Source: Candidatus Pyrohabitans jungbluthii (GTDB lineage Archaea; Hydrothermarchaeota; Hydrothermarchaeia; Hydrothermarchaeales; BMS3B). From it: 64,000 nt of DNA. Numbering within the stretch: the first letter of the stretch is position 1; each line of letters opens with the position of its first letter. The stretch is from positions 330,758 through 394,757 of the forward strand of contig MTMD02000008.1 in assembly GCA_002010065.2 (NCBI GenBank), given 5' to 3'. The notes under the pieces were generated by a model that saw only the letters and a list, made by a program, of their open reading frames with translations, was not told where the DNA came from and made no database searches. The translations under genes and the position numbers were made by a program. Below, in pieces: positions 35,594 to 50,975 of the stretch.

Positions 35594-36288
35594 CCGTAGT
35601 TGTAGTTATCCGCAGGCAGAGTGTGCGCATGAGGCAGAGCCTCACCCACGCGGTATTCATCCCAGACGCCGTTCTTCACAATCACCTTGACGCTGCTCTG
35701 CACACTGCGCTGGGTGGTTATCTCTACCACATCCCCAGGTCTCCAGTAGAAGCTGGGAGAGGTATTCGTAGCCACAAACTTGCCGGTTGCAATGGTTATG
35801 TTGAACCACCCCACTATACCATAAAGCTGATCAGGAGCCGGTGTGGAGGGGTTGTATACCTGGGTGTCGTCCTGGGTTGTTAGAGTTAAGGAGGGGTTTG
35901 CGCTGCTGTCGTGATATGCACCCTTAACCAAGTAGGTCTTGTTAACATAGCTCACCTGGAAGTAGCCTAGGGCGCTCACAGTATACGCATCGCTCTCGAG
36001 CCATGCGCCATCTATAACCAGAGACACATAGTCAGGGTCTAAAGTGGTGCTTCCTGTGTTCTCCACATAGATTAAAGTATTTCCTCCGCTTTCGGTTATA
36101 TTCACTATCTCTATTTTGGTGCTCAGCACCTCCAGGTCTCGCTTTGACTGCTCCTTTATATTCTCGGCAAGCGTGGTCAGGTAGCTCTCGCCAGCGCTTA
36201 AAAGCTCCACCGCTGCAGTTATGCCTGCCATGAAAATTATAAGAAAGGCCGCAGCGGTGGCAAATCCCAACCCACCACCCCCTATCAC
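35584..36288 (-). CDS. Archaellum protein ArlF-like with insertion
   Basis: GFATAAAFLIIF TM, TKIEIVN, VENTGSTTL, WRPGDVV. Confidence 0.72.
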   Translation of the reverse strand: MIGGGGLGFATAAAFLIIFMAGITAAVELLSAGESYLTTLAENIKEQSKRDLEVLSTKIEIVNITESGGNTLIYVENTGSTTLDPDYVSLVIDGAWLESDAYTVSALGYFQVSYVNKTYLVKGAYHDSSANPSLTLTTQDDTQVYNPSTPAPDQLYGIVGWFNITIATGKFVATNTSPSFYWRPGDVVEITTQRSVQSSVKVIVKNGVWDEYRVGEALPHAHTLPADNYNYGWD

Positions 36289-37193
36289 ACTATGCCCGAC
36301 TCATCGAGCTGGTTTACAACCTCTGAGTAAAGGGTGGGGCTTACATCCATTCCCTGAAGCTTGATTATGAAGAAGAGGGAGATGATGTGCTCTAGGATGG
36401 TGAGTTTTCGATTGCCTCTCGAAGCACGTGTACCGCCGAGGTCGCGGGAATACTTTATTATCTGGTCCCTAACCTCCTTGGTTATCCAGCCAACCTCCTC
36501 ATAGAATAGCAATGTTTTTATCATGCCCTGGTAGCCCACCTTCTTTATAAGAAAGTCCAACCACTTGAAGAGGAGGAGCAGCGAGTTGGGGTCGTTGTTT
36601 ATCCGCGTTAGCCTCACCACTGCACCATCTGGCTTTATATCCACCATCCCCTTTTCCACCATGCGCTCCTCTAGCATCTGCCCTTCAGAAGTAGCCGACA
36701 GCACAGATTTCTTCTCCTTTTTCTCCAGCTCATTACCATTCCCGTTTTCAATCCCGTTGGAATACCCTATAAATGGATTTATCTCATTGGTCACAAGCTC
36801 ATAAACAGAGAGCAGACCTTCCATATTTTTCTCAATCTTTGATATCCTTTCATCAAAACCGCTAACAAGGTTCTCAATCTTTGCCACTGTATCGCTTATC
36901 TCTGAAACCCTTTCCTCGAGCTGGGAAATAGCTTCCTGGGACACAGAAGCGGCTGGGCTAAAGCTCTCCTCCGCCGGTGCCTCCCCGAAGGGCGGAGCAT
37001 CACTTGCTTTATCTTCAGCCTCAGAAAAGAAGGGCGGGAGGTCCTCATCCTCTGCGTCTGTTTTCACCACCTCTCCAAAGGGCGGCACCTCTGATTTTTC
37101 CTCTTCCAGCGCCTTTTCGTTCAGTTCCCCAAGGTCGATCTTCTTATCCTTCAATCCGAGAACCAGCCCAACGCTAAGCAGTTCAAGCATCAA
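36285..37193 (-). CDS. Archaellum switch protein ArlC/D/E-like
   Basis: Coiled coil LLSVYELVTNEINPF (ArlC-like) plus KWLDFLIKKVG..FYEEVGWIT..H..SLFFI (ArlD/E domain). Confidence 0.88.
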   Translation of the reverse strand: MMLELLSVGLVLGLKDKKIDLGELNEKALEEEKSEVPPFGEVVKTDAEDEDLPPFFSEAEDKASDAPPFGEAPAEESFSPAASVSQEAISQLEERVSEISDTVAKIENLVSGFDERISKIEKNMEGLLSVYELVTNEINPFIGYSNGIENGNGNELEKKEKKSVLSATSEGQMLEERMVEKGMVDIKPDGAVVRLTRINNDPNSLLLLFKWLDFLIKKVGYQGMIKTLLFYEEVGWITKEVRDQIIKYSRDLGGTRASRGNRKLTILEHIISLFFIIKLQGMDVSPTLYSEVVNQLDESGIV

Positions 37194-37797
37194 TTTTTAT
37201 CCCCTCTCTCCTCGTATTTACCTGGTTGACCGGTATATCACGCCTCATTCTGAGAAGTTCCACTTCTTTTCTGGCGGATCTCAACTCTCTCTCCAGCTCT
37301 TTTATCCTTCTTCTCAGGTTTCTTATGTTTATCTCCTTTATTATTCCTAATCTGTACCATTTCTCGATTTCTTTTGCTGCCAAGGTGGGGTTTCTGAGAT
37401 TCTGAACCTTCGATCTTTTAAACCACTCTTCGAGTTCCTTCAAACTGTAGAGCAGCTCCAGGTCTTCACTGGGCAGGTTTATGCCGCGCACCTCCCCCAG
37501 CACAGGCTGCGATATCCTCTTTTTTACAGGTATGGGATCGCTCACATTCATCCTGCCCTTCAGGAGAGCGCCGTAGGTTATCAGAGCAATGGCGGCGAAG
37601 GCTACGTAGAGAATAAACCAAGTCGCCAGGTTACCTTCCTTGTTTACCACAAGATTTACAGGTAGTAGCATTATAAGCATGCCCACTGTCGCTGTCAGTG
37701 ACCAGTATAGACTCCACACCATCTTATTCTTCCTCTTTATATAACTCTCAAGTTCATCCATCAGCACAGCATCTGGCGAGGTCTGGATTATATACAT
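37183..37797 (-). CDS. Hypothetical 2-TM protein with C-terminal coiled coil
   Basis: Two hydrophobic helices, LRRRIKELERELRSARKEVELL; first gene of the arlCDE-F-G operon. Confidence 0.75.
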   Translation of the reverse strand: MYIIQTSPDAVLMDELESYIKRKNKMVWSLYWSLTATVGMLIMLLPVNLVVNKEGNLATWFILYVAFAAIALITYGALLKGRMNVSDPIPVKKRISQPVLGEVRGINLPSEDLELLYSLKELEEWFKRSKVQNLRNPTLAAKEIEKWYRLGIIKEINIRNLRRRIKELERELRSARKEVELLRMRRDIPVNQVNTRREGIKIDA

Positions 37798-38113: not shown

Positions 38114-38596
38114 TCACAGTTCTCTCACGCCTTCCCTCACGGTTCTTACCAAGAGCTTCCCGGAAGAGGTGTCAAATTCCAGGGTTCTCCCAACATTTCC
38201 ACCGGTATCTTCAGCAACTATCCTTATATCTTCTTTTTCAAGGATATTTTTTACAGCGATGACATTTTTTCTTCCTATATAGTCATTTTTTGGTGTAAAA
38301 TAGAACATCTTCGCCCCACCTGCTATCTTTGCAACAATTCTGGATTTTGATGCTCCGAGTTTCAGCATCTTCTCAATTGCCAGAGGAATAGCGGTGTCCA
38401 CATACTTTGCTCTGTTCTCCACTGGTTGGAAATTCCTGCTGCTGGGCAGCATTATATGAGCTAAAGACCCAACCTTGGACGTGGAATCGAAAAGGGCGAC
38501 GCCAACACAGGAACCCAACCCAATACTCACCAGCTTCGCTGGTTTGGTCGCGGCTTTAACGTCGGCGATGTCTACAACAATCACCGGCGGAGACAT
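38114..38596 (-). CDS. cheD: Chemoreceptor deamidase CheD
   Basis: GLGSCVGV, HIMLP, AKIAGGAKMF, IGRKN, EDTGG. Confidence 0.95.
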   Translation of the reverse strand: MSPPVIVVDIADVKAATKPAKLVSIGLGSCVGVALFDSTSKVGSLAHIMLPSSRNFQPVENRAKYVDTAIPLAIEKMLKLGASKSRIVAKIAGGAKMFYFTPKNDYIGRKNVIAVKNILEKEDIRIVAEDTGGNVGRTLEFDTSSGKLLVRTVREGVREL

Positions 38597-38598
38597 GC

Positions 38599-39222
38599 TC
38601 AGGCACCCATCCCCACCTTCTCCCTGAGAAGGGCGATTATCCTGTCAAGAGACTCCGGATCAGGCATGAGAAAGATTTTCCCTGTTATCTGCTTCTGCTG
38701 GAACATGAACTTGGTTTTGAAAAGTATAACCTCATTCGCTTTTTGCGCCTGCTCGAGCATGATAAAGTCCAGAATGGCGACGCCCATATCAACTGCTAAA
38801 GCAGGAGGCGCGGGCATTATCTTCAATCCCAGAAAGTCTGCAAGTGCATTTGAGAAGTGAGAGGCCATTATGTTGCCCACCTCCTGTAAAACAGACACCT
38901 CCATATCGGAAAGCTCCTCCGATGCAGATGGCATACCTGTGATCTGGGTCACGAGTTCCACCACCGAGGCTATATCAAGGAGAAGCATTATGACACCGCA
39001 TATATCACCCTGAAGCTCCACATACACCCCAGCCACGAGGTCTTCTCCTCCCTCGCTGGCGAGCAGTTCTTCCACAGGCTTTATCTCAAGCGCCGGCACC
39101 TCTATGTCCACCTTAGTATTCGTCAGCTCAGCGAGGGAGTTTGTGGCGTGGCTAGCGCCAATGCTCCCCACCTCGCGCAACATATCCTTCTCAAGCTCGT
39201 TCAACATCACTTGCCCTACCAT
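38599..39222 (-). CDS. cheC: CheY-P phosphatase CheC
   Basis: DMLREVGSIG and SVLQEVGNIM motifs. Confidence 0.93.
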   Translation of the reverse strand: MVGQVMLNELEKDMLREVGSIGASHATNSLAELTNTKVDIEVPALEIKPVEELLASEGGEDLVAGVYVELQGDICGVIMLLLDIASVVELVTQITGMPSASEELSDMEVSVLQEVGNIMASHFSNALADFLGLKIMPAPPALAVDMGVAILDFIMLEQAQKANEVILFKTKFMFQQKQITGKIFLMPDPESLDRIIALLREKVGMGA

Positions 39223-41105
39223 TCTCCAACCCCCAGAGAAGCTATGTCAAGAATTAGAGACACTCTGCCATCGCCCAATATGGTTGAGCCTGCAAACCCA
39301 CGTACGTCCCTCAGCTTTCCATCCAGGCTCTTTATCACTATCTCCTGCTGTCCTATAAGCCCGTCAACCGCAAGGCCTATGAGGTTGCCTCCCTTCTCCA
39401 CTATCACAACGGGACGATTATGCTTGCTGTTGGTTCCCGAAGATTTTCCTAGAAGGGAGAGAAGGTCATACACCGGCAGAATCCTGCCCCTAAGCTGAAT
39501 AACCTCCTGTCCCATTACAGTACTTATATCCTCCGCCTTCACATTCAGAATCTCATTCACGTTGTTCAATGGAATGGCGTATATCTTCCCGCCAGCGGAG
39601 ATGAGCAACGCCTTTGTTATCGCAAGCGTTAGAGGCAGCTTGAGCACAAACCGTGTGCCCTTATCCACCTCAGATTCAAGCTCAACGGTCCCACCGAGGG
39701 AGAGTATCTTGTTTCTCACCACGTCAAGCCCAACGCCTCTACCTGAGATGTCGGTTACCTTATCCGCAGAGCTGAAGCCAGGGGTAAATATAAGCATCTT
39801 TGCTTCGTCGTCGGACATCTTTGCTGCTTCACTTTCGCTTATTAACCCCTTCTCGACGGCGATTCTCTTTATTTTCTCTGGGTCGATTCCTCTGCCGTCG
39901 TCCTCGACGATTATCTCAACGTGGTCCTTAACCCTCCTTGCCTTAAGTAGTATCCTTCCCTTCTCATCCTTTCCCTTTCTAACCCTCTCCTCCGGTGCCT
40001 CTATGCCATGGTCTATGCAGTTCCTGAGGAGGTGTACCAGAGGGTCACCTATCTCATCTAGCACCGTCCTGTCAAGCTCTATGTCCTTACCCTCAATCAC
40101 AAACTCAACAAGCTTTCCCTCCTTCTTGGCGAGATCTCTGACCATCCTCGGGAACCTGTCAAAGACATACCTCACCTCCACCATTCGCATCTCCTGTACC
40201 TCTTCCTGTAGGCTTGTGGTGAGTTTGTCAATGTAGGCAAGAGTTTCGTTGAGTTCGTCAATCGCATACTTGTTTTTAATTTGGAAGAGCCGGCTCTTGC
40301 TTATCACAAGCTCCCCAACGAGGTTCATCAGAGAATCTAGGCGCTCTATTGACACGCGCACCGTTTGCACGCTCTTTATATCTCCCACTTTTTTAGCCTT
40401 GCCCTCTTTTGCAGGTGACGCTTCACCTGAGTAAATCTCTACCCTGCTCACCTCGCTCACTTTTTTAAGCCTTGCCCTTATTTCCTCCTCGCTTGCGTTG
40501 GTTTTCAGAAATATTGAGAAGCTGCGGTCGAAGTTGCCGTCCTCCAGCTTCTCCTCGTCGGGGATGCATTTTACAATCTCTCCCAGCTCCCTGAGTTCCC
40601 TGAAAGCCATGTAAACCCTTACCGACTTAAGGGTGCAGTCCTCGTCAAGCTGTATATCAATCCTTTTAATCCCCTCCTCCGGCAAGGAGACCTCTACTTT
40701 CCTCCCCGCTGCATCTTTATCACCTTTCCTTTTTATTTGAGTGAATTTGCTCAGCTTCTGGCTAACCTCCTGGGCGTCGATGTTCTCCTCATCGCTCTCT
40801 GAGAGGGAATCCAGCGCCGACTCAAGAATATCCACAGCCTCGAACAGGACGTCTATAACCTCAGAGCTTATCTCCAGTTCTCCATTCCTAACTGCATCGA
40901 GAAGGTTTTCCATATCATGGGTTATCTGTGCCATGCCTTCGTAACCCATCGTAGCGGACATACCCTTAAGGGTATGGGCTGCCCTGAATATCTCTGTGAT
41001 AACCTCCTTATTGCCGGGATTCTTCTCCAGCTCCAGAAGCCCCTGAGTCAGAGAGTTGATGTGTTCCATCGACTCACTTATAAAGACGTCCTTATAGTTC
41101 TCCAT
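39216..41105 (-). CDS. cheA: Chemotaxis histidine kinase CheA
   Basis: FRAAHTLKG Hpt, P2 domain, LLRNCIDHG, SGRGVGLD, C-terminal CheW-like domain. Confidence 0.97.
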   Translation of the reverse strand: MENYKDVFISESMEHINSLTQGLLELEKNPGNKEVITEIFRAAHTLKGMSATMGYEGMAQITHDMENLLDAVRNGELEISSEVIDVLFEAVDILESALDSLSESDEENIDAQEVSQKLSKFTQIKRKGDKDAAGRKVEVSLPEEGIKRIDIQLDEDCTLKSVRVYMAFRELRELGEIVKCIPDEEKLEDGNFDRSFSIFLKTNASEEEIRARLKKVSEVSRVEIYSGEASPAKEGKAKKVGDIKSVQTVRVSIERLDSLMNLVGELVISKSRLFQIKNKYAIDELNETLAYIDKLTTSLQEEVQEMRMVEVRYVFDRFPRMVRDLAKKEGKLVEFVIEGKDIELDRTVLDEIGDPLVHLLRNCIDHGIEAPEERVRKGKDEKGRILLKARRVKDHVEIIVEDDGRGIDPEKIKRIAVEKGLISESEAAKMSDDEAKMLIFTPGFSSADKVTDISGRGVGLDVVRNKILSLGGTVELESEVDKGTRFVLKLPLTLAITKALLISAGGKIYAIPLNNVNEILNVKAEDISTVMGQEVIQLRGRILPVYDLLSLLGKSSGTNSKHNRPVVIVEKGGNLIGLAVDGLIGQQEIVIKSLDGKLRDVRGFAGSTILGDGRVSLILDIASLGVGEW

Positions 41106-41129
41106 GAACCCCTCCCCTTTGCCTCGAAG

Positions 41130-41486
41130 CTAGCAGAGCTTCTCAATTACCTCGAGCACCTTATTCTCCTTGAAGGGCTTCACAATGAAATCCCTTGCTC
41201 CAGCATCAAGCGCTTCCTTGACCATAGCCTCCTGTCCTAGGGCACTTACCATTACTATCTTCGCCTCCGGGTCAATTGCCATAATCTGCCGCACCGCCTC
41301 TATTCCATTCACTTCCGGCATTATTATGTCCATTGTTACAACGTCTGGCTTGAGCTCCGTATATTTCTTCACGCCTTCTGCGCCGTTCTGGGCCTCCCCA
41401 ACTATTTGATGCCCGTTTTTACCCAGAATGTTCTTCAGCATCATTCTCATAAAGGCAGCATCGTCCACAATCAACACCTTTGCCAT
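41130..41486 (-). CDS. cheY: Chemotaxis response regulator CheY
   Basis: VDDAAFMRMML, DIIMP, SALGQ, FIVKPF. Confidence 0.95.
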   Translation of the reverse strand: MAKVLIVDDAAFMRMMLKNILGKNGHQIVGEAQNGAEGVKKYTELKPDVVTMDIIMPEVNGIEAVRQIMAIDPEAKIVMVSALGQEAMVKEALDAGARDFIVKPFKENKVLEVIEKLC

Positions 41487-41490
41487 GTCC

Positions 41491-42699
41491 TCACCTCCTC
41501 CTGTTTACTGGAAGTATGACCTTGCACGTGCACCCTCTGTTGCGCCCCATGCTCTCAATCTTAATACTCCCCCCATGAAACTCTATTATCTTCCTAGCAA
41601 GCGTTAATCCAAGACCTATTCCGGGATACTTCCGTGATGTAGAGGAGTCCTCCTGGTAAAAGGGTTCAAAAATCCTCTCTAGGTTCTCCTCTGCTATACC
41701 TACGCCCGTGTCCTCCACCGCTATCTCCACCATCCCATTCCTTACATGTGTGCTCACTCTGACCAAGCCCCCTCGCTTGTTAAACTTTATGGAGTTGTCA
41801 ATTATTTGCTCAACCGCATAGATTAAATAGGCGGGGTCTACCTCCACCTTTGGCAGGTCTCGAAGCTCCATCTCAACTCTCACACCCCTCTGCATGGCAA
41901 AGGGAAGCTTTTCTTTTACAGCTTTCTGGACCAGAGTGGAGATGTTCTCTCTCCTGAACATAAGTGTCATGACGCCGCGCCGGATCTTGGATAGCTCAAG
42001 CATCCCGTCTATTATCCGGTTCTCACGCATGAGGTTTCTCCTTGCCATTAGCAGGATTCTCTTCCTCTTCTCCGTATCCTCCTCTTCTAATGCCAGGTCG
42101 ATGCACCCAAGGGAGATGGTGAGGGGAGTTTTCAGCTCATGGGAAACAATGGCGAGGATGTCACTGGTTACACCTTCAAGGTCTCTCAGCCTCCTGTTGA
42201 CACTCAAAAGCCTAGAATACGATCTTTCAAGTTCCGACTTAAGCCTCCGTATTACCCCTGAAAAGTCGGCTATCGCCACTAGAACCCTTCTGACATTTCC
42301 TCCTGAATCTCTGATCGGATAAAAAGTAAACTGATACGGCCCCGGAATGCCAGTGCATGGTTGCTTATCAATTATGTTGAGAGGCTCACCTGAGGCAAAG
42401 GTCTGGAGAACCGGACAGGAATGCGCAGAGAATACGCAGTTGAATATCACCCTGCAAGAGGAGCAAACCAGTTTGTCCATGGGCATGTGCACAAGCTTTG
42501 CGAACTCATCGTTGCATGAGCATACCCTCAGCCTGCTGTCTATCTCAACTATAGCGATTCCTACTACCCCTCCCCTATCCACAAGGGCAGTCCTGAGTTT
42601 GGCGTTCTTGCGGCTATCTAAGGCTGCGTGTGCAGATACCCCAAAATACTTGGCAACTGAGGTGTAATCCCCCCTTCCCATGTCTATCATTCTCTCCAA
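41491..42699 (-). CDS. Cys-rich PAS-domain sensor histidine kinase
   Basis: PAS with several Cys, SHELKTPL, DNSIKF, DTGVG, GLGL. Confidence 0.9.
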   Translation of the reverse strand: MERMIDMGRGDYTSVAKYFGVSAHAALDSRKNAKLRTALVDRGGVVGIAIVEIDSRLRVCSCNDEFAKLVHMPMDKLVCSSCRVIFNCVFSAHSCPVLQTFASGEPLNIIDKQPCTGIPGPYQFTFYPIRDSGGNVRRVLVAIADFSGVIRRLKSELERSYSRLLSVNRRLRDLEGVTSDILAIVSHELKTPLTISLGCIDLALEEEDTEKRKRILLMARRNLMRENRIIDGMLELSKIRRGVMTLMFRRENISTLVQKAVKEKLPFAMQRGVRVEMELRDLPKVEVDPAYLIYAVEQIIDNSIKFNKRGGLVRVSTHVRNGMVEIAVEDTGVGIAEENLERIFEPFYQEDSSTSRKYPGIGLGLTLARKIIEFHGGSIKIESMGRNRGCTCKVILPVNRRR

Positions 42700-42733
42700 A
42701 TTTAAAGAGAGGTGAAGGTTAATAAAGGTTATT

Positions 42734-42986
42734 TTTCAGGACTCAAAACAGAAAAAAGAAGAGAATGGAGATACCCCTCTGCTCACTGTGGCCCATGAGT
42801 CTGCTCTTCCAACTCATAGGTGATGCTCTGGCCTCTTGTGCTATAATAGACGATCTTATCCCCCACTATCTCAAAGGCATCGTATCGCATCCTCTTACCC
42901 CCCAACACTTGTTTTTCAGGTCTTTAAATAAAGTTTATTTTTCGGATCTTGAACAACGGGTATTATCACAGTTTCGGCTACCGAAA
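42734..42986. promoter_or_regulatory. Three TTTCG-N5-CGAAA boxes
   Basis: 42734-42748 (-, HK-che operon), 42940-42954 (-, micro-ORF), 42972-42986 (+, perfect, receiver-HK operon); each 7 nt from a TATA-like element. Confidence 0.72.
42783..42890 (-). CDS. 35-aa microprotein (not in ORF track)
   Basis: MRYDAFEIVGDKIVYYSTRGQSITYELEEQTHGPQ; preceded by box, TATA and G-rich SD. Confidence 0.5.
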   Translation of the reverse strand: MRYDAFEIVGDKIVYYSTRGQSITYELEEQTHGPQ

Positions 42987-43065
42987 AGTTAAGTTAATAT
43001 ATATAGTTTAAATATTCCTTAGTGATATATACTGTTGAAAAATCCATAGTTCGGAGGATTAAAAT

Positions 43066-43488
43066 TTGAAAAAAATTTTAATTGTTGACGACGAAAAGGA
43101 GATAACCCATCTTGTGAAAAAGCTTCTGGAGCCTGAGGGTCTCGAAGTAATTACCGCAAACTCTGGAAAGGAAGCTCTGTCACTTCTCAAATCCTTTACT
43201 CCAGACTTTATATTTCTCGACCTTTTCATGCCCGAGATGTCGGGCTGGGATTTGCTGAAAGAGATAAGGAAGAAGCTGAAGGATGTGCCCGTGGCAATGC
43301 TCACTGTTCAGCCCCTTTACGAATCGATTGAGAGGGAAGAAGTTGAGGAGATAGTTGACTACATAACAAAGCCCTTTGACAAGGTGGATTTGATAGAAAC
43401 TCTAAAGCAAATTCCCGACTTTTTTGCGGAGGGAGATAATGCTGGAGGGGGAGATTCCAAACAGGAAACTGGTGGAGAGGATAGTTGA
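43066..43488 (+). CDS. Single-domain response regulator receiver
   Basis: IVDDE, DLFMP, MLTV, KPF; TTG start. Confidence 0.9.
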   Translation: MKKILIVDDEKEITHLVKKLLEPEGLEVITANSGKEALSLLKSFTPDFIFLDLFMPEMSGWDLLKEIRKKLKDVPVAMLTVQPLYESIEREEVEEIVDYITKPFDKVDLIETLKQIPDFFAEGDNAGGGDSKQETGGEDS

Positions 43489-44557
43489 GCTGTCAGCAGA
43501 TGCGATGTTGCTCCTGGATTCCAGAGGTAAAGTGACGTATAGCATATGCAGCCCTTCTTTCAATCTCTGCAGCGAGCTTATGGGAAAGCCTCTGCTTGAG
43601 CTCTGGTTGCCTGAACTCAGGCGTGAGGGAGAGAGAATTATCCACGCGGCTATGCATGGAAGGATGCTCAGGGGCATAATCTCAGGGTGGAAATCAAGCG
43701 GCCATGAGCCAGTAGTGGTTAGCCTCTCCCTCGCACCACTGGATGAGGAAAACCCTGAGAGTGGTGTGATTGTAATTGTAAGGGACATAACCAGAGAAGT
43801 GGAGGCAGAGAAGAGGGTTAGCAGATACATTCACGAATTGATGGAGTACGTTAAGCACGTGGAGAACTCGAACCAGCTTAAAGATACCTTCGCAGATATA
43901 ATGCGGCATGACCTGCTTAATCCCCTCTCTGCAATTAAAAGTGTGGCTTCCACAGGCAATATTGGAAAGGAAGGCATAGAGCTTATAAAAAAGAGTGTGG
44001 AGAGGATAGAAAAAATAGTTTCCACCTTCTCCAAGTATGCCCTCCTGCATAGCCTTGAGGACCTTGACTTCCAGGAAGACAACCTCGCAAAGATGCTGGA
44101 CGAGGTTGTGGATATGCTGGCACCTGTGGCAGAGGAGAAGGGGATAAGCATTGTGAGAAACTACCCTGCTGAAATCAGGGCACGTTTCAGCCCTTTTCTT
44201 GAAGAGGCAGTCGCCAACCTGCTTTCAAATGCGATAAAGTTCAGCCCCCCTCGCGGAGAGGTAACCCTTGAGGTTCTCGTGGACAAGTTTTACTTAACAA
44301 TAAGGGTAAAAGATCAGGGCATCGGCGTGCCTGACAGGTACAAGAAAAGTATATTTGAGCGCTTCGTGAGGGGTAAAAAGGAAGGCATTCAGGGCTCAGG
44401 GCTTGGTTTGGCGATTGTGAAGCGCATAGCAGAACTCCACTCCGGCGAGGTGTGGGTGGAAGATAACGTGGTGGAGTACCAGGATAACTCGGGCAGGGTG
44501 CATCAGAAGAAGCGGGGAAGTGTTTTTGTGCTCAGGATACCTCGAGGTGTGGGATAG
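43424..44557 (+). CDS. PAS-domain sensor histidine kinase
   Basis: PAS..VRDIT, RHDLLNPL, NLLSNAIKF, DQGIG, GSGLGL. Confidence 0.92.
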   Translation: MRREIMLEGEIPNRKLVERIVELSADAMLLLDSRGKVTYSICSPSFNLCSELMGKPLLELWLPELRREGERIIHAAMHGRMLRGIISGWKSSGHEPVVVSLSLAPLDEENPESGVIVIVRDITREVEAEKRVSRYIHELMEYVKHVENSNQLKDTFADIMRHDLLNPLSAIKSVASTGNIGKEGIELIKKSVERIEKIVSTFSKYALLHSLEDLDFQEDNLAKMLDEVVDMLAPVAEEKGISIVRNYPAEIRARFSPFLEEAVANLLSNAIKFSPPRGEVTLEVLVDKFYLTIRVKDQGIGVPDRYKKSIFERFVRGKKEGIQGSGLGLAIVKRIAELHSGEVWVEDNVVEYQDNSGRVHQKKRGSVFVLRIPRGVG

Positions 44558-45104: not shown

Positions 45105-46451
45105 TTATATTTCCCAAGGTGGCTTCTCCTCTGATTCCTGCATGCTCTCCTTTCTGCTTTTGATCCGCTCCTCTATCTTAGCCATGTCATCCCAGTCTTC
45201 CTGAACCTCCTCCTTCGCTGGATATGCGTTCCTCGCAAAGGTGAGGAACACCTCGCCTAGAGGAGTCATCTTAACCTCGGTAGCTGCCCGCTGCACAATC
45301 CCGTAGTATTCCAGCACCTTCAGCGCTTCGTTCACCTCCTCTTTTGGCAGGTCGCTTTTCTGCACAATCTCCTGAAGCTGCATGGTGCCCTTCTCCAGAA
45401 GATTCAGAAGCACAATATCGCTCGCCGTTGGTAGCACCGAGAAGGCATCTATCTGCTCAAGGGTAATTTCATACACACACGCAGCGCCACCTGCGTTTCT
45501 GCACTCTACCTCCCTTATTGTGACGCCAATCTTCAGGTTCTCCATGAAGAACCTTCCCACTGCCGTCGAAGTTGTGTGACATGCCCCACCCGGCACCATT
45601 GCACAAACGTGGCAGCCCTCCACACGGAGGCGGTAGGTTAGCGGTGCCTTGCTTTGGAGCGAGACCTTTTCGCCAATTCCCGCGCGCATGAGCATGTTCT
45701 CAATCAGGAGCCGAAGCCTGTCATCCTCGAAAACACCTGTCGCGGAAGAGCGCAGAAATGCTCGCCTCGCAGCCACTGGCACTGTGATACTTTCAAGGAA
45801 ATCATTAACCCTCTCTTCAACCTCAAATAATTTCTCAAAGCTTCCCAGCAGCTCTGAGAAGTTCAGAGGTTCCTCCTCAAACCCCTGAAGCTCAACATTC
45901 ATTATCCTCCGGATGTCCTCCTCATTCAGATAGAAATACAGGTGACAGTAGGTGAAATCAGAATCCTGCAGGGAAGTACTGAAAAAGAGCACACCCTCCT
46001 TATTTACGCCGAGAGCTGCAAGAAGGTCCGGAATTGAGCGAATTCTGCCTGCGCTCAAATCTGGAGAGGAGATTTTCACCTTCACCCCAAAAAAATCAGA
46101 AATCGCCTTTACGAAGGAACCTGCCATCTTTCTGCCTACTTCCTGGAGCATACCATCAAGCTCCGAAACGGAACCGGGATTACCAATACACTGACCTACT
46201 TTCAGCGCACCCTTAATAGGAAAAAAGAAGAGAAGGGTACCTGTTATTGCATCTCCAAAGGTATAGACGCTGACAATCACCCCCTCCTCTCCCACCTTCT
46301 CCGCCATATCCTTCCCCGCTATTACGTCTATCACCGGCGGCGTTATTGACACCTTTGCGCTCAGCATATCCGAGAGGGAGCTTGCAGAGTGGCTAGAGCC
46401 AATGTTTCCAACCTCACGCAGCGCATCCTTAGCAAAACTGCTGAGGTTCAC
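45105..46451 (-). CDS. CheC-like / V4R / winged-helix fusion protein
   Basis: DALREVGNIG (CheC); GCHVC..ACH..EVECRNAGGAACVYEI (V4R); LLNLL..QEIV..EEVNEALKVL..GIV..MTPLG (wHTH). Confidence 0.8.
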   Translation of the reverse strand: MNLSSFAKDALREVGNIGSSHSASSLSDMLSAKVSITPPVIDVIAGKDMAEKVGEEGVIVSVYTFGDAITGTLLFFFPIKGALKVGQCIGNPGSVSELDGMLQEVGRKMAGSFVKAISDFFGVKVKISSPDLSAGRIRSIPDLLAALGVNKEGVLFFSTSLQDSDFTYCHLYFYLNEEDIRRIMNVELQGFEEEPLNFSELLGSFEKLFEVEERVNDFLESITVPVAARRAFLRSSATGVFEDDRLRLLIENMLMRAGIGEKVSLQSKAPLTYRLRVEGCHVCAMVPGGACHTTSTAVGRFFMENLKIGVTIREVECRNAGGAACVYEITLEQIDAFSVLPTASDIVLLNLLEKGTMQLQEIVQKSDLPKEEVNEALKVLEYYGIVQRAATEVKMTPLGEVFLTFARNAYPAKEEVQEDWDDMAKIEERIKSRKESMQESEEKPPWEI

Positions 46452-46978
46452 TTATACCCCTCCTCCATCATTATGAGCTTCCCCTTCTCTGTGAGTATCC
46501 CTGCCTCTGTGCATATCCCCTCTCGCTTAAACTCCTCCAGAATGCTCACTATCTCATCGTAATCACGCTTGACAAGGGGCATTATGTTCTCAGGCCTCCT
46601 CACACCGTGATAAAGCGCCTTAAGCACCAGCCTCTTGGCGTCGGTAAATTTAATGGCGCCCACGGTATCAGAGGCCGTGGGGAGCACGCTCATTAGGGCG
46701 TTGTAGAGGGAATAGACCTTTGGCTTCTTTCCCCCTATAAAGGTCTTGGTGTTGTCGATAACCATCACCAAGATAGAGTTTCCGCCGGCGGCGTCCTTTA
46801 TCTCAGAGATGCTGACATGCTCATTGGGTATCTTTTTCCAGCCCTTATCTGTCTTTATCCAAACGTTCAAATCCGTTGAAGCAAGAACTATCTTCTTCCA
46901 GTCCTTAAAATTCGTTGAGAAGTACACATTCTCCACTTTAAAGAGAAGCTTCTCCTGCTCCGCCATGATTAGCCCCAC
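46448..46978 (-). CDS. Shortened CheF-like taxis adaptor
   Basis: One beta-rich N-domain (WKKIVLAST..KKIP) plus CheF-type C-terminus VLKALYHG..DEIVSILEEF..LTEKG. Confidence 0.6.
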   Translation of the reverse strand: MGLIMAEQEKLLFKVENVYFSTNFKDWKKIVLASTDLNVWIKTDKGWKKIPNEHVSISEIKDAAGGNSILVMVIDNTKTFIGGKKPKVYSLYNALMSVLPTASDTVGAIKFTDAKRLVLKALYHGVRRPENIMPLVKRDYDEIVSILEEFKREGICTEAGILTEKGKLIMMEEGYK

Positions 46979-47652
46979 TCAGAGATGTACTTCTTGCCGA
47001 AGGAACTGGGCGCCGTTTTCTTTACCGTGGTGGTCTGCCCTGCTTTTGGCTGAAGAATCAGGGTGAACTCCTGGTCGGGCTGAATGGGCAGATCGTTGCC
47101 CAGGTTGTCCTCAATCCAGTAGATTATCTCTACTATCTCGCTCTGCTCCAGTACAGAGTTGGGATTCTGGGGGTTCTTGTCCTTTATCCTTCTTATGTAG
47201 AACTGAGCCACGTCGGTGTCTGTACCATTTATAACATTCTCGGCTTTTGAAATTTCGTCAGTAAGACTAAGAATCCCCTGCGAGGCGTTGTTGCTTCCGG
47301 TGCCATTGAACTTTATGCCCACAATGTAGTTATCGCCGGAATGGTAGGCAAGCACCATATCCTCGTACTTCACATCCCCACTTCCTGCGGCAAGCTGCAC
47401 GCGTAGTATTACCGCATTTATTCTCTCCCGAGATGTATCGTTCACATAACCTATTACATCCACAACCTTTACATTCGTCGAGACTTCTTTGGTTGCTTGC
47501 TCACCCGTTACAGTGGCCTTCTGTTGAAGTCCACCAGAAGTGCGAAGCAGCACACCTGCTGCGACCGCAGCCACGAGAACCATGGCTATGAAGATTATCA
47601 GCGTGCCAATACCCACCTGCGCCCTGCGACAGGATAGCAAATTCCTCCCCAT
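46969..47652 (-). CDS. arlB: Archaellin
   Basis: RRA/QVGIGTLIIFIAMVLVAAVAAGVLL. Confidence 0.95.
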   Translation of the reverse strand: MGRNLLSCRRAQVGIGTLIIFIAMVLVAAVAAGVLLRTSGGLQQKATVTGEQATKEVSTNVKVVDVIGYVNDTSRERINAVILRVQLAAGSGDVKYEDMVLAYHSGDNYIVGIKFNGTGSNNASQGILSLTDEISKAENVINGTDTDVAQFYIRRIKDKNPQNPNSVLEQSEIVEIIYWIEDNLGNDLPIQPDQEFTLILQPKAGQTTTVKKTAPSSFGKKYISEWG

Positions 47653-47701
47653 TTTATCTCCCCGTGTATAGTGTGAATAAATGAGAATTATAAAGGTTAT
47701 T

Positions 47702-47716
47702 TTTTGGATTTCGAAA
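47702..47716 (-). promoter_or_regulatory. TTTCG-N5-CGAAA box upstream of the archaellin-cheF-cheC/V4R operon
   Basis: On the minus strand TTTCG AAATC CAAAA, 7 nt, TTTATAAT. Confidence 0.7.
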
Positions 47717-47751
47717 ATTAAATAAAAAAGAAAAAGAGAGATTTTTCTTGT

Positions 47752-48441
47752 TTATCCCCACTCTGTGGTGTACTTCTGGTTAATCACGCTGGGTGCAGTC
47801 TTCTTGACCGTTGTTGTCTGTCCTGCCTTGGGCTGCACTGTGAGCACAAACTGATCGTCCGGGTCAAGAGGCACGTCGGTGCCGTCGTTCTTCTCAAGCC
47901 AGAAGAGTATCTCTATTATCTCCCCCGGCTCAAGCACTTCGTTGGGCGTTGAATCTCTGTCCTTCAGCCTGCGGATGTAGAACTGAGCCTTGTCGTAGTC
48001 TGTACCCGAACTGAGATTGGCATTCTCTATGCCAGAAGCGATGCCCCCACTGAGGGAGTACAGACTGTCGCTCAATGCTTTTGTACTGTTGTACTTGATG
48101 CCACTCACGTAGGTGTCTCCCTCCTGGTAGGTGAGCACTATGTCCTCATACTTGACGTCGCCGCTGCCAGAGGCGAGCTGCGCCGTGAGGATGAGTGCCC
48201 TTATCTTCTTGTTGCTCGTGGTGTCGTTACTGTAGCCCACGACGTTCGTAACCTTGATGTTCGTTGAGACTTCTTTTGTTGCTTGTTCACCTGTCACCGT
48301 GGCCTTCTGCTGAAGTCCACCCGACGTCTTGAGAAGAACGCCCGCTGCCACCGCTGCAACCAGGATCATCGCTATGAAGATTATCAGTGTGCCAATTCCT
48401 ACCTGCGCTCGCTTGTCCCTGAAAAATTTCTCACCCCTCAT
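47752..48441 (-). CDS. arlB: Archaellin
   Basis: KRA/QVGIGTLIIFIAMILVAA; ATG at 48441 after GGAGGTGA. Confidence 0.95.
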   Translation of the reverse strand: MRGEKFFRDKRAQVGIGTLIIFIAMILVAAVAAGVLLKTSGGLQQKATVTGEQATKEVSTNIKVTNVVGYSNDTTSNKKIRALILTAQLASGSGDVKYEDIVLTYQEGDTYVSGIKYNSTKALSDSLYSLSGGIASGIENANLSSGTDYDKAQFYIRRLKDRDSTPNEVLEPGEIIEILFWLEKNDGTDVPLDPDDQFVLTVQPKAGQTTTVKKTAPSVINQKYTTEWG

Positions 48442-49121
48442 ATTCCAATCACCTCCATAAAATGGAAGAGAAGGCAGGGGAGGGCATTTTCTCCCTATCC
48501 CCACTCAGTTATGAACTGCTGGGAAATCACGCTGGGCACTGTCTTCTTGACCGTGGTAGTCTGTCCTGCCTTGGGCTGCACTGTGAGCACAAACTGGTCG
48601 TCTGGTGCCAATGGATTGGTCAGCGCCAGCTCGTTGCCGCTGTTGTCCACCAGCCAGTAGACGATCTCTATTATCTCCCCAGGCTCCAGCACGGTATTGG
48701 GAGTGGAATCCTTGTCCTTGAGTCTGCGGATTTCGAAGACCGCTTTGTTCTGTGAGTCTGCTGTAGTGTTAACATTTTCCAGCGCGTCAGTGAGACTCAG
48801 TACGCCACCATAGGCGATGCCGCTCACGTAGGTGTCGCCTTCCTGGTAGGTGAGCACTATGTCGTCGTACTTCACATCCCCGCTACCAGAGGCAAGCTGA
48901 GCGGTGAGAATGATGGCATCAACGCGGTTGTTGTTGGTATTGTTGGTGTAGCCCACGACGTTCGTAACCTTGATGTTCGTTGAGACTTCTTTTGTTGCTT
49001 GTTCACCTGTCACCGTGGCCTTCTGCTGAAGTCCACCCGACGTCTTGAGAAGAACGCCCGCTGCCACCGCTGCAACCAGGATCATCGCTATGAAGATTAT
49101 CAGAGTGCCAATTCCTACCTG
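48231..49121. repeat. 175-nt direct repeat shared by two tandem archaellin 5' regions
   Basis: 48231-48405 versus 48947-49121, one mismatch seen (48388/49104). Confidence 0.9.
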
Positions 49122-49157
49122 TGCTTTCCTGTTTCTCAGAAACTCCCCAACCTTCAT
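48495..49157 (-). CDS. arlB: Archaellin
   Basis: RKA/QVGIGTLIIFIAMILVAA; GGAGG SD. Confidence 0.95.
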   Translation of the reverse strand: MKVGEFLRNRKAQVGIGTLIIFIAMILVAAVAAGVLLKTSGGLQQKATVTGEQATKEVSTNIKVTNVVGYTNNTNNNRVDAIILTAQLASGSGDVKYDDIVLTYQEGDTYVSGIAYGGVLSLTDALENVNTTADSQNKAVFEIRRLKDKDSTPNTVLEPGEIIEIVYWLVDNSGNELALTNPLAPDDQFVLTVQPKAGQTTTVKKTVPSVISQQFITEWG

Positions 49158-49317: not shown

Positions 49318-49812
49318 TCATTTGATTAACTGCCACCATGCATTGTGAAAATATGAAAAATCGCATGAATTATCATAAGCAGATAAGAATCTATTGGAAT
49401 ACCTATCCAGATAAACTTCCACGCGCCATTTTTGATTTTTTGGGTCATATTTAAATTTTCTGTCCGCAAACAATTTTTCAAGCTCCAGAGTATTTATTAT
49501 AAAGAAATCATAGTCTATCGCATTCCTCTCGCTTTGGTCAAAATGAACCCCCACTAATACATAGAAGACATTCTCGCTAAGTATCTCCCTGTGAAGCATC
49601 CTTGATATTTCCCACCAGTAGCTGTACTGCGCTCCTCTGGGTAGATATCTGTCGAAGTACTTTTTGCTTGTTTTTATCTGAAGAGCTATAAACTTATTCC
49701 TGTTATACCCGACAACATCTATTCCTTTATCTTTCACCGGAGCAAAGCTGCCAAATTCCATGTGTGTGAGGCGATGGAAGACCTCCAAAACGCCTAAGCT
49801 GCCGGTATCCAA
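49318..49812 (-). CDS. PD-(D/E)xK nuclease-fold protein
   Basis: G..EV...L....F.P..DKGIDVV....FIALQIKTS; probable TTG start at 49812. Confidence 0.65.
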   Translation of the reverse strand: MDTGSLGVLEVFHRLTHMEFGSFAPVKDKGIDVVGYNRNKFIALQIKTSKKYFDRYLPRGAQYSYWWEISRMLHREILSENVFYVLVGVHFDQSERNAIDYDFFIINTLELEKLFADRKFKYDPKNQKWRVEVYLDRYSNRFLSAYDNSCDFSYFHNAWWQLIK

Positions 49813-49861
49813 GGCTTCGCACCAAGTAGTTTGAAGCTCCTTAAAAAAGATATAATTTATT

Positions 49862-49876
49862 TTTCGAACTCCGAAA
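49862..49876. promoter_or_regulatory. Perfect TTTCG-N5-CGAAA box between divergent genes
   Basis: TTTCG AACTC CGAAA flanked by TATA-like elements on both sides (7 nt minus, 9 nt plus). Confidence 0.75.
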
Positions 49877-49912
49877 CAATAAAGATTTATAACCTCTCGA
49901 GAAGGTGCTTCC

Positions 49913-50257
49913 ATGGGGGGTAATAAAAAGGAAAATCTTGAACTACGAGCCTACAAACTTGGTTTTGAGGTCGGCTTCCACACACACGACGAATGGACAA
50001 GCTGGGTCTGGAAGGAGAAAAAGAAGATTTTTGATGAGGCAAGGAAAAGCAAACTTCTGGATAGAATAGAAGTTGCATATGAAAGGGGCAAATTTGAGGG
50101 TTTTTTGAGAAAAAAGAGAATGAAGGGAAAGGAGAGTATAATTAAGAATAAGTCAGGAATAAAAGTTATAGAAAAGCCATCATTTATCTCAAAACCTGCA
50201 ATGACGGATGTTATGAAAGCAGTTCTTCTACCAAAATTTCTCAAATTTTTTAAATAG
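49913..50257 (+). CDS. Conserved-type hypothetical protein of archaeal chemotaxis loci
   Basis: AYKLGFEVG..H.EW..W..AYERGK.EG pattern recalled from Thermococcales che clusters (not database-verified). Confidence 0.6.
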   Translation: MGGNKKENLELRAYKLGFEVGFHTHDEWTSWVWKEKKKIFDEARKSKLLDRIEVAYERGKFEGFLRKKRMKGKESIIKNKSGIKVIEKPSFISKPAMTDVMKAVLLPKFLKFFK

Positions 50258-50975
50258 TTTTAAGAAGACTGGTGATTCTTATACCATTTTTAGTTATTTC
50301 GAATCTGCGGAGGTTACAATCATGCTTTGTGCCCCGCATTTTTATTATCTGAATCGCCCGTGTCATCTGGGAATTTGAAAGAAAGTTGTGGAGGAAGATT
50401 ACCCCATGGGCAAGGAAGTGCTCCGGAAGATACCTCTCCGGGTCAGTCATTTCGGAGAGCAGCAGGGTGGTGCACCCGATTTTCTGAAGCCCCCGCATAA
50501 ACTCCCCCATCTGTTTCTTCTCAAACCTCGGATCGGCGCCTATAAATTTGATGGCGGAGAGGGAGTCTATCACGAGCCTTTTAATCCCTCTGAACTTCAC
50601 GTGCTCGGAGATTCTCGAAAGAAGCTGCTTGTAGGTTGGAAACTCCACAGAGGTCTCCAGCATTTCCCCAATGTCCATGAACAGGAGCTTTCCAGATGTA
50701 ACAAGTTCTTCTATTTTGAAGGAAAAGGAAGTCATATCAGATATTATGTTCTCTACATCCTCCACAAGAGAGACAAAAAGGCCACGCTCCCCCTGCCAAG
50801 CACCGCAGGCAAGGAACTGCACTCCAAAGGTGGTCTTTCCACTGCCCGGAGGGCCACTAACCACATAAATTCTGTTGGGCAAAAGACCGCCCTCAATCAG
50901 GGAGTCCAGCCCGGTGATGCCTGTATTTACTCGAGTTTTAGGCCTAGGTGTTCTAAGAGCTGCCATCAATTTCAT
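50250..50975 (-). CDS. Single-domain KaiC-like RecA-superfamily ATPase
   Basis: TGITGLD, GPPGSGKT, LVIDS, HGVIFL, KMRG. Confidence 0.9.
   Translation of the reverse strand: MKLMAALRTPRPKTRVNTGITGLDSLIEGGLLPNRIYVVSGPPGSGKTTFGVQFLACGAWQGERGLFVSLVEDVENIISDMTSFSFKIEELVTSGKLLFMDIGEMLETSVEFPTYKQLLSRISEHVKFRGIKRLVIDSLSAIKFIGADPRFEKKQMGEFMRGLQKIGCTTLLLSEMTDPERYLPEHFLAHGVIFLHNFLSNSQMTRAIQIIKMRGTKHDCNLRRFEITKNGIRITSLLKTI

Follow-up and report, generated by a model that had tools for sequence, protein, structure and literature searches.

A CheC-V4R-winged-helix protein and its small PH-domain partner, a candidate adaptor between chemotaxis and the archaellum in Hydrothermarchaeota

We analysed a 64,000-nucleotide stretch (the window) of contig MTMD02000008.1 from Candidatus Pyrohabitans jungbluthii, a member of the Hydrothermarchaeota. 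The window carries a gene whose product joins a CheC domain, a V4R domain and a winged helix-turn-helix (wHTH) in one chain, called here the fusion protein. A gene for a small protein of 172 residues, called here the partner, lies directly in front of it. To join the bacterial-type chemotaxis pathway to the archaellum, CheF is held to be the only component needed that is specific to archaea. A review describes it in almost all chemotactic archaea (PMC7289035). With moderate confidence, we propose that the fusion protein and its partner form a two-protein adaptor and phosphatase of phosphorylated CheY (CheY-P), which would couple chemotaxis to the archaellum in these archaea.

The positions of the genes, domains and sites are collected in Table 1. 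The stop codon of the small open reading frame (ORF) overlaps the GTG start of the fusion gene by 4 nt (GTGA), and a GGAGG run stands in front of that start. The longest ORF of the partner has 176 residues and begins at 46978, and the database start is MAEQEK. The canonical cheC of the locus (38599-39222) adjoins cheD. The first-pass annotation, made from the letters of the window, had placed an archaellin gene and a CheF-like gene on the same strand as the fusion gene and a separate canonical cheC at 38599, and these neighbours are all present.

Table 1. Positions of the genes, protein regions and sites discussed (window coordinates; residue numbers refer to the encoded protein)
Feature	Position	Strand	Remarks
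Gene for the CheC-V4R-wHTH fusion protein (P0001)	45105..46451	-	448 residues, GTG start, stop codon 45105-45107
CheC-fold domain, residues 1-186	45894..46451	-	Pfam CheC, Foldseek, AlphaFold2 elements
Helical linker, residues 196-258	45678..45866	-	common to the stand-alone V4R-wHTH family
V4R domain, residues 259-339	45435..45677	-	Pfam, NCBIfam, alignments, Foldseek
Acidic winged helix, residues 340-410	45222..45434	-	after the invariant LEQIDxF / LPTxxD linker
Acidic C-terminal tail, residues 411-448	45108..45221	-	invariant W420, terminal PPW (P445, W446)
CheC site 1, D9-x3-E13-x2-N16-x22-P39	46335..46427	-	consensus from PMC12887009
Degenerate CheC site 2, G100-x3-E104-x2-R107-x22-P130	46062..46154	-	varies freely across the family
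Gene for the 172-residue partner (P0163)	46448..46966	-	PH-like domain, residues 1-95; winged helix like the CheF C-terminal domain, residues 105-172
Three archaellin genes (arlB)	46969..49157	-	directly upstream, same operon
cheY, cheA, canonical cheC and cheD	38114..41486	-	same locus
ArlC/D/E-type switch protein (FlaC_arch + Arch_fla_DE)	36285..37193	-	candidate docking target
KaiC-like ArlH	50250..50975	-	other candidate docking target
Perfect 15-bp palindrome TTTCGA-N3-TCGAAA	49218..49232	.	abuts the A-run/TATA upstream of arlB1; candidate operator

The domain order of the fusion protein was established by profile searches and a structural model. Pfam CheC (PF04509) matches it in two stretches, with an E-value of 2.7e-16 and 59.6 bits (cut-off 22). 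V4R (PF02830) matches residues 275-330 at E 3.9e-4 and 20.9 bits, under the cut-off of 31. Residues 253-329 align with the C-terminal V4R part of the MsvR model (NCBIfam NF053755) at E 1.7e-7; this V4R part alone aligns, and the model as a whole gives 31.2 bits, far short of its cut-off (220). The TrmB-type winged helix (PF01978) matches residues 347-390 with 26.5 bits, marginally over the cut-off of 25.6. The AlphaFold2 model, built from a 48-row alignment, has a mean predicted local distance difference test (pLDDT) value of 90.3 and shows four folded blocks in the order CheC fold (residues 1-186), helical linker (three helices, 198-256), alpha/beta V4R domain (262-339) and winged helix (343-409). 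A disordered hinge (187-195) follows the CheC fold, and a helix at 423-440 precedes a floppy end. In Foldseek searches of the PDB, the top matches are the CheC structures 2f9z and 1xkr (E 1e-7), followed by FliY, CheX and FliM; Bet3/TRAPPC3, which have a V4R-like fold, and the winged helices of MarR and Csa3 appear at lower ranks. The parsing into CheC, a Cys-rich V4R and a C-terminal wHTH proposed at first pass is confirmed by the profile matches, of which the V4R one is sub-threshold in Pfam, together with AlphaFold2 and Foldseek. That proposal had been made to hinge on whether the middle and C-terminal regions would model as V4R and wHTH, and both folds appear in the AlphaFold2 and Foldseek results. 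The same architecture is found in eight further genomes and about nine database clusters; the fusion is therefore not an assembly artefact.

A word-indexed search returned eight full-length homologues with 37-100% identity, one of them from Candidatus Pyrohabitans, a Hydrothermarchaeota genus, and an exhaustive search over 1.84 billion cluster representatives found only nine with E < 1e-30 (seven full length or nearly so, two fragments). Databases name the protein 'chemotaxis protein CheC' or leave it nameless. Conservation was counted over an alignment of 13 full-length proteins. The active-site consensus of CheC, CheX and FliY is D/S-x3-E-x2-N-x21/22-P (PMC12887009), and it is complete at site 1 (D9/E13/N16/P39), where E13 and N16 are invariant in all 13 proteins and P39 is nearly so. 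Site 2 is degenerate, since it reads G100/E104/R107. The intact first site and degenerate second site of the initial annotation are both upheld. The linker motif LEQIDxF is conserved in the same 13 proteins, and P445-W446 at the extreme C-terminus is invariant.

Five cysteines (C280, C283, C291, C317 and C325) are invariant in 13/13 full-length homologues, and they fall into two groups when relatives lacking the CheC domain are included. These stand-alone V4R-wHTH proteins have about 240-330 residues, match only residues ~190-447 and account for 20 among the 150 matches listed. When ten of them were scanned, all ten matched V4R, two over the Pfam cut-off (P0028, 36.8 bits; P0035, 34.9 bits). 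Alignment A2 holds 18 sequences, three fused (P0001, P0009, P0011) and 15 stand-alone, and its invariant columns are P225, C291, E314, C317, C325, D345 and W420. C291, E314, C317 and C325, whose spacing we take to equal that in MopR, are thus conserved in both families, and the C280-x2-C283 pair is invariant in the fusion family only. In V4R phenol sensors, three Cys and one Glu hold a structural zinc (PMC10715001; also PMC5847659). By its sequence pattern, the C291/E314/C317/C325 set agrees with the usual structural Zn site of V4R domains, and only the additional CxxC pair is peculiar to the fusion family. Redox or ligand gating of the fusion protein is possible.

The partner is more strongly conserved than the protein it accompanies. 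Its identity is 95-98% within the genus (fusion protein, 70-83%; neighbouring archaellin, 81-88%) and 52-69% across the order, against 35-37% for the fusion protein. Its 18 homologues are each at least 63% identical, and none is named. In the model of the partner (pLDDT 82), a helix closes off seven strands and a linker leads on to a winged helix, and Foldseek finds the PH domains of dynamin, SSRP1, SPT16 and Sin1. In the ESM Atlas, 13 of the 30 nearest clusters are CheF (scores 0.92 and 0.91, with 183 and 181 shared features) and one structural row is CheF as well; the tool itself grades this kind of evidence as a lead. An hhalign comparison of the C-terminal domains of partner and CheF gave E 0.0022 and a probability of 13% with three CheF sequences, and E 1.8e-4 and 49% over 66 columns with four more diverse ones. 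The Pfam CheF-arch family (PF04283) did not match the partner even at E 10. Searches of PDB sequences with phmmer, using the partner or the V4R segment, returned nothing, and the profiles A6 (partner) and A3 gave only noise against the PDB.

CheF binds CheY-P through its C-terminal domain, and its two PH-like domains are proposed as contacts to the archaellar switch (PMC9126983). The partner has one PH-like domain and a similar tail; it therefore looks like a CheF cut down to one PH domain and the tail, although by Pfam it is not a member of that family. It resembles the CheF structures 7ovp and 7od9 in its PH-like N-terminal domain and winged-helix-like C-terminal domain, and it likewise occurs only where che and arl genes occur. 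Unlike CheF, it has one PH domain rather than two and 172 residues rather than ~300-340, lacks a PF04283 match, lies in the arlB operon and is always coupled to the fusion protein. On this basis the label 'CheF-like', which the small gene had carried from the beginning, can stand for its PH-like domain and CheF-like winged helix, with weak support at the level of sequence. We also compared the winged helix of the fusion protein with the C-terminal domain of CheF (hhalign E 0.004-0.008, probability 5-9%) and with the winged helix of the partner (E 9e-4, probability 23%), and both matches were too weak to be accepted.

Complex prediction suggests that the two proteins bind each other. With the fusion protein at full length (alignment A1) and the partner (A6), the complex score was 0.73, and the best of three controls gave 0.00. 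Among 80 solved complexes 58 attain this level, as do 2 among 110 mismatched pairs; the calibration holds only roughly because our own unpaired alignments were used. The runs share at least 69% of contacts, and the pLDDT of the partner is at least 74. The predicted interface comprises residues 205-216, 286-314, 332-338 and 397-409 of the fusion protein and residues 81-94 and 103-133 of the partner. Interface residues that match invariant columns are E332 and D335 in the large protein and F107, T108, L113, G121 and I128-L131 in the small one. The CheC domain is outside the predicted interface.

We followed both genes in 41 genomes, comprising 38 Hydrothermarchaeota species genomes and three outgroups. 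The full-length fusion gene is present in nine, all among the 38 Hydrothermarchaeota genomes (G000-G004, G015, G022, G023 and G032), and the partner gene is in the same nine and in none of the other 32. The two genes are adjacent in 9/9 carriers. Their order is archaellin, small gene, fusion gene in seven of the eight relatives, and the pair is divergent in G032. CheW occurs in 22 genomes, archaellin in 21 and both in 14; the pair is in 9 of these 14 and in 0 of the 27 others. It was not found in G005-G008 and G010, five members of the same family that have archaellin but no che genes, nor in eight CheW-positive genomes without archaellin. Pfam CheF was detected in G023, G035 and G037 only, which leaves 8/9 pair carriers without a Pfam-detectable CheF; a search for further CheF sequences yielded just three. 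In the genome of the window, which is 99.95% complete, CheF was found neither by Pfam nor by phmmer and hmmsearch with the CheF sequences of relatives (best E 0.08). The suggestion made at first pass that the fusion protein handles CheY-P gains support from the invariant E-x2-N motif and from the confinement of the gene to genomes with CheW and archaellin.

These observations can be combined into a mechanism. The partner would be a cut-down CheF relative, whose PH-like domain may dock to the motor, at ArlCDE or ArlH, and whose winged helix, resembling the CheY-P-binding tail of CheF, perhaps offers a CheY-P site. The fusion protein would grip the partner with the helical linker, the V4R domain and the stretches on either side of the winged helix. 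The CheC domain would be left free, and its one E-x2-N site could bind and dephosphorylate CheY-P at the adaptor. In the flagellar switch of bacteria, FliY unites a CheC domain and FliN in one chain, and FliM has the CheC fold and is the CheY-P receptor. The archaeal pair may be a functional analogue of FliY/FliM. It may also make permanent, or hard-wire, a CheC-CheF contact of the kind reported from Halobacterium. Such a contact has precedent, since CheC2 of H. salinarum is reported in a review to bind CheF1 and CheF2 and not CheY (PMC7289035).

The closest known proteins to the CheC part are those of the CheC/CheX/FliY family (T. maritima CheC, 1xkr and 2f9z; FliY, 4hyn). The fusion protein shares with them the CheC fold and one complete site and, as in FliY, its phosphatase domain is joined to a part that would anchor it at the motor. 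It differs in the degenerate site 2, in an extension of ~260 residues (the helical linker, V4R, winged helix and tail) found in no described member, and in being encoded in the archaellin operon while a separate canonical cheC-cheD pair lies in the same locus.

Several points weigh against an adaptor of this kind. The organism is known solely from assembled genomes, and the proposal rests on computation. At the sequence level the partner resembles CheF only weakly: the hhalign match covers only the winged helix, which is a very common fold, and CheF is not among the top Foldseek matches. The partner also has one PH domain where CheF has two. The carrier counts are not independent because a single genus supplies five of the nine. 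G023 holds both the pair and a Pfam CheF; the pair therefore does not simply exclude CheF. G011, G033 and G039 have CheW and archaellin and neither the pair nor a Pfam CheF, so some other adaptor, or a CheF that escaped detection, must exist in relatives; a gene missed by the assemblies would be a further explanation. One of the three, G039, comes from a different phylum and is a closed genome of 1.6 Mb. The stand-alone V4R-wHTH relatives adjoin KaiC-like ATPases and not che genes, and the original role of the core V4R-wHTH module was accordingly not chemotaxis as such. The roughness of the complex calibration belongs to the same list.

One alternative is that the fusion protein is a soluble, signal-gated CheY-P phosphatase, in which the V4R domain senses a metal, redox state or small molecule and switches CheC, and the partner is merely a co-regulator without a role at the motor. 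The conserved site 1 and the CxxC that is invariant only in the fusion family agree with this. V4R domains of phenol sensors bind small ligands (PMC10715001), and redox taxis would be useful to relatives that inhabit anoxic hot crustal fluids (PMC6775978). A soluble enzyme leaves unexplained why the gene lies in the arlB operon and not in the che operon, why it is strictly paired with a protein that combines a PH-like domain and a tail like that of CheF, and why CheW-positive, archaellin-free genomes lack the pair; the C291/E314/C317/C325 set also fits a plain structural zinc. We consider this alternative unlikely.

Another alternative takes the V4R-wHTH module and the PH-like protein as a general accessory of KaiC-like ATPases. 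Here the pair would act on ArlH, in motor assembly or ATPase activity, and not on the ArlCDE switch, and the CheC domain would only feed in CheY-P information. The relevant evidence comes from the stand-alone relatives, which belong to metagenome-assembled genomes of Thermoplasmatota. At 4/4 of the Thermoplasmatota loci inspected (L018-L021) they lie in a cassette of a ~190-residue ORF, a ~120-residue ORF, the V4R-wHTH gene, a KaiC-like ATPase gene and two further ORFs. The ATPase gene follows the V4R-wHTH gene in all four, and of the proteins in the window ArlH is the one most like its product (27-29% identity). Two small ORFs stand before the V4R-wHTH gene, and one 196-residue cassette ORF has a sub-threshold CheF-arch match (E 0.022). 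The arlH gene of the window lies 4 kb upstream of the fusion gene on the same strand. It is not adjacent, and the similarity of the small Thermoplasmatota ORFs to the 172-residue partner is insignificant (hhalign E 0.014-0.015, probability 3%). The 120- and 190-residue ORFs were also tried as CheF homologues and rejected, as hhalign against CheF was insignificant. Conservation of the whole pair in Thermoplasmatota is only a lead for these reasons. We regard the ArlH-directed accessory as quite unlikely.

The stand-alone proteins themselves (~300 residues, annotated 'predicted hydrocarbon binding protein') are related to residues 195-447 of the fusion protein with 20-28% identity and share its Cys/Glu/Cys/Cys set, winged helix and PPW. 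They differ in having no CheC domain, longer tails with SFAE/PPW repeats, and KaiC-like ATPases rather than archaellins as neighbours. In these tails, PPW[KE] and SFAE motifs recur up to three times and resemble short docking peptides. The two further ORFs of the cassette are a ~270-residue ORF and one for a 460-630-residue coiled-coil or zinc-finger protein.

The remaining alternative, one of the two inferences of the first-pass annotation, makes the fusion protein a transcription regulator of the archaellin operon, whose winged helix binds DNA, for example the TTTCGA-N3-TCGAAA palindrome, under the control of CheC (through CheY-P) or V4R (through redox or a ligand), as in MsvR. The gene lies inside the arlB operon, the TrmB-type winged helix scores slightly above its Pfam cut-off, and the V4R part is closest to the C-terminus of MsvR. 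The palindrome next to arlB1, kept in two congeners, also speaks for this alternative. Both proteins also have a wHTH and a V4R domain and are rich in Cys, and MsvR provides the best NCBIfam match for residues 253-329. The fusion protein differs from MsvR in its reversed domain order, its score of 31 bits against 220, its acidic winged helix, its extra CheC and its context in motility rather than oxidative stress. The winged helix is net negative (charge -2 to -7, pI 4.1-5.1) in 13/13 members, two of the 13 (P0015 and P0016) carry deletions in the helix-turn-helix, and the winged-helix region is predicted to pack against the partner. The fusion gene is also missing from relatives that have an archaellum and no che genes.

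The palindrome was examined separately. It lies beside the TATA of arlB1, is perfect, and corresponds to the TTTCG box of the first-pass annotation. Among five genome matches to the pattern TTTCGA-N0-8-TCGAAA, only this one has its sequence. It is retained identically in both congeners whose upstream region was retrieved (G001 and G004; L022 and L023) while the flanks differ. Among the 12 arlB-upstream regions fetched it was found only in these two, and not in G015, G023 and G032, which belong to other genera, or in five pair-free genomes; the stretches from G002 and G022 ran into contig ends. The box is real, its conservation is limited to the genus, and no observation connects it with the fusion protein. 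Given the acidic winged helix, the deletions, the predicted packing on the partner and the absence of the gene where che genes are missing, we do not favour a DNA-binding regulator and consider it improbable.

A more specific form of the adaptor proposal is that Hydrothermarchaeota replaced CheF with a two-protein switch adaptor, in which the CheC-fold protein serves as the motor-side CheY-P receptor and phosphatase, and a metal or redox site of the V4R domain, at the interface with the mini-CheF, gates the coupling. We hold this version as doubtful. If it is true, passage of chemotaxis signals to the archaellum would be under direct control of the cell's redox state.

Several other genes near the locus were noted. 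A PAS histidine kinase gene lies immediately upstream of cheY on the minus strand, and a plus-strand pair of a response regulator and a PAS histidine kinase converges on the fusion gene; both lie in window positions 41491-44557, and the converging pair is syntenic in congeners (L008-L010). Two ORFs of the che/arl cluster have no Pfam or NCBIfam family, at 37183-37797 (204 residues) and 49318-49914 (198 residues). The 204-residue ORF, between cheD and arlCDE, was considered as a CheF candidate and set aside, since its Atlas scores of at most 0.80 are noise. The same contig has another che cluster ~270 kb upstream (G000:C8:60371-64618), which includes CheW, CheA and the third gene of the CheC family.

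In the accessible part of the paper on Hydrothermarchaeota motility, che and archaellum genes are described as abundant and nothing more is said about them (PMC6775978). A full-text search for V4R with archaellum or CheC with V4R as whole words, with supplements outside its scope, found no description of the architecture in print, in line with the statement at first pass that none was known. The setting is an early-branching phylum rich in che and arl genes, yet without a recognisable CheF in eight of the nine pair carriers. If the pair is the adaptor that we propose, a single PH domain and a CheF-like tail can make up such an adaptor anew, and a phosphatase of its own can be built in. In that case V4R-wHTH modules would act as protein docking devices and not as DNA binders, and the finding would provide a handle on the V4R-wHTH and KaiC-like cassettes of Thermoplasmatota.

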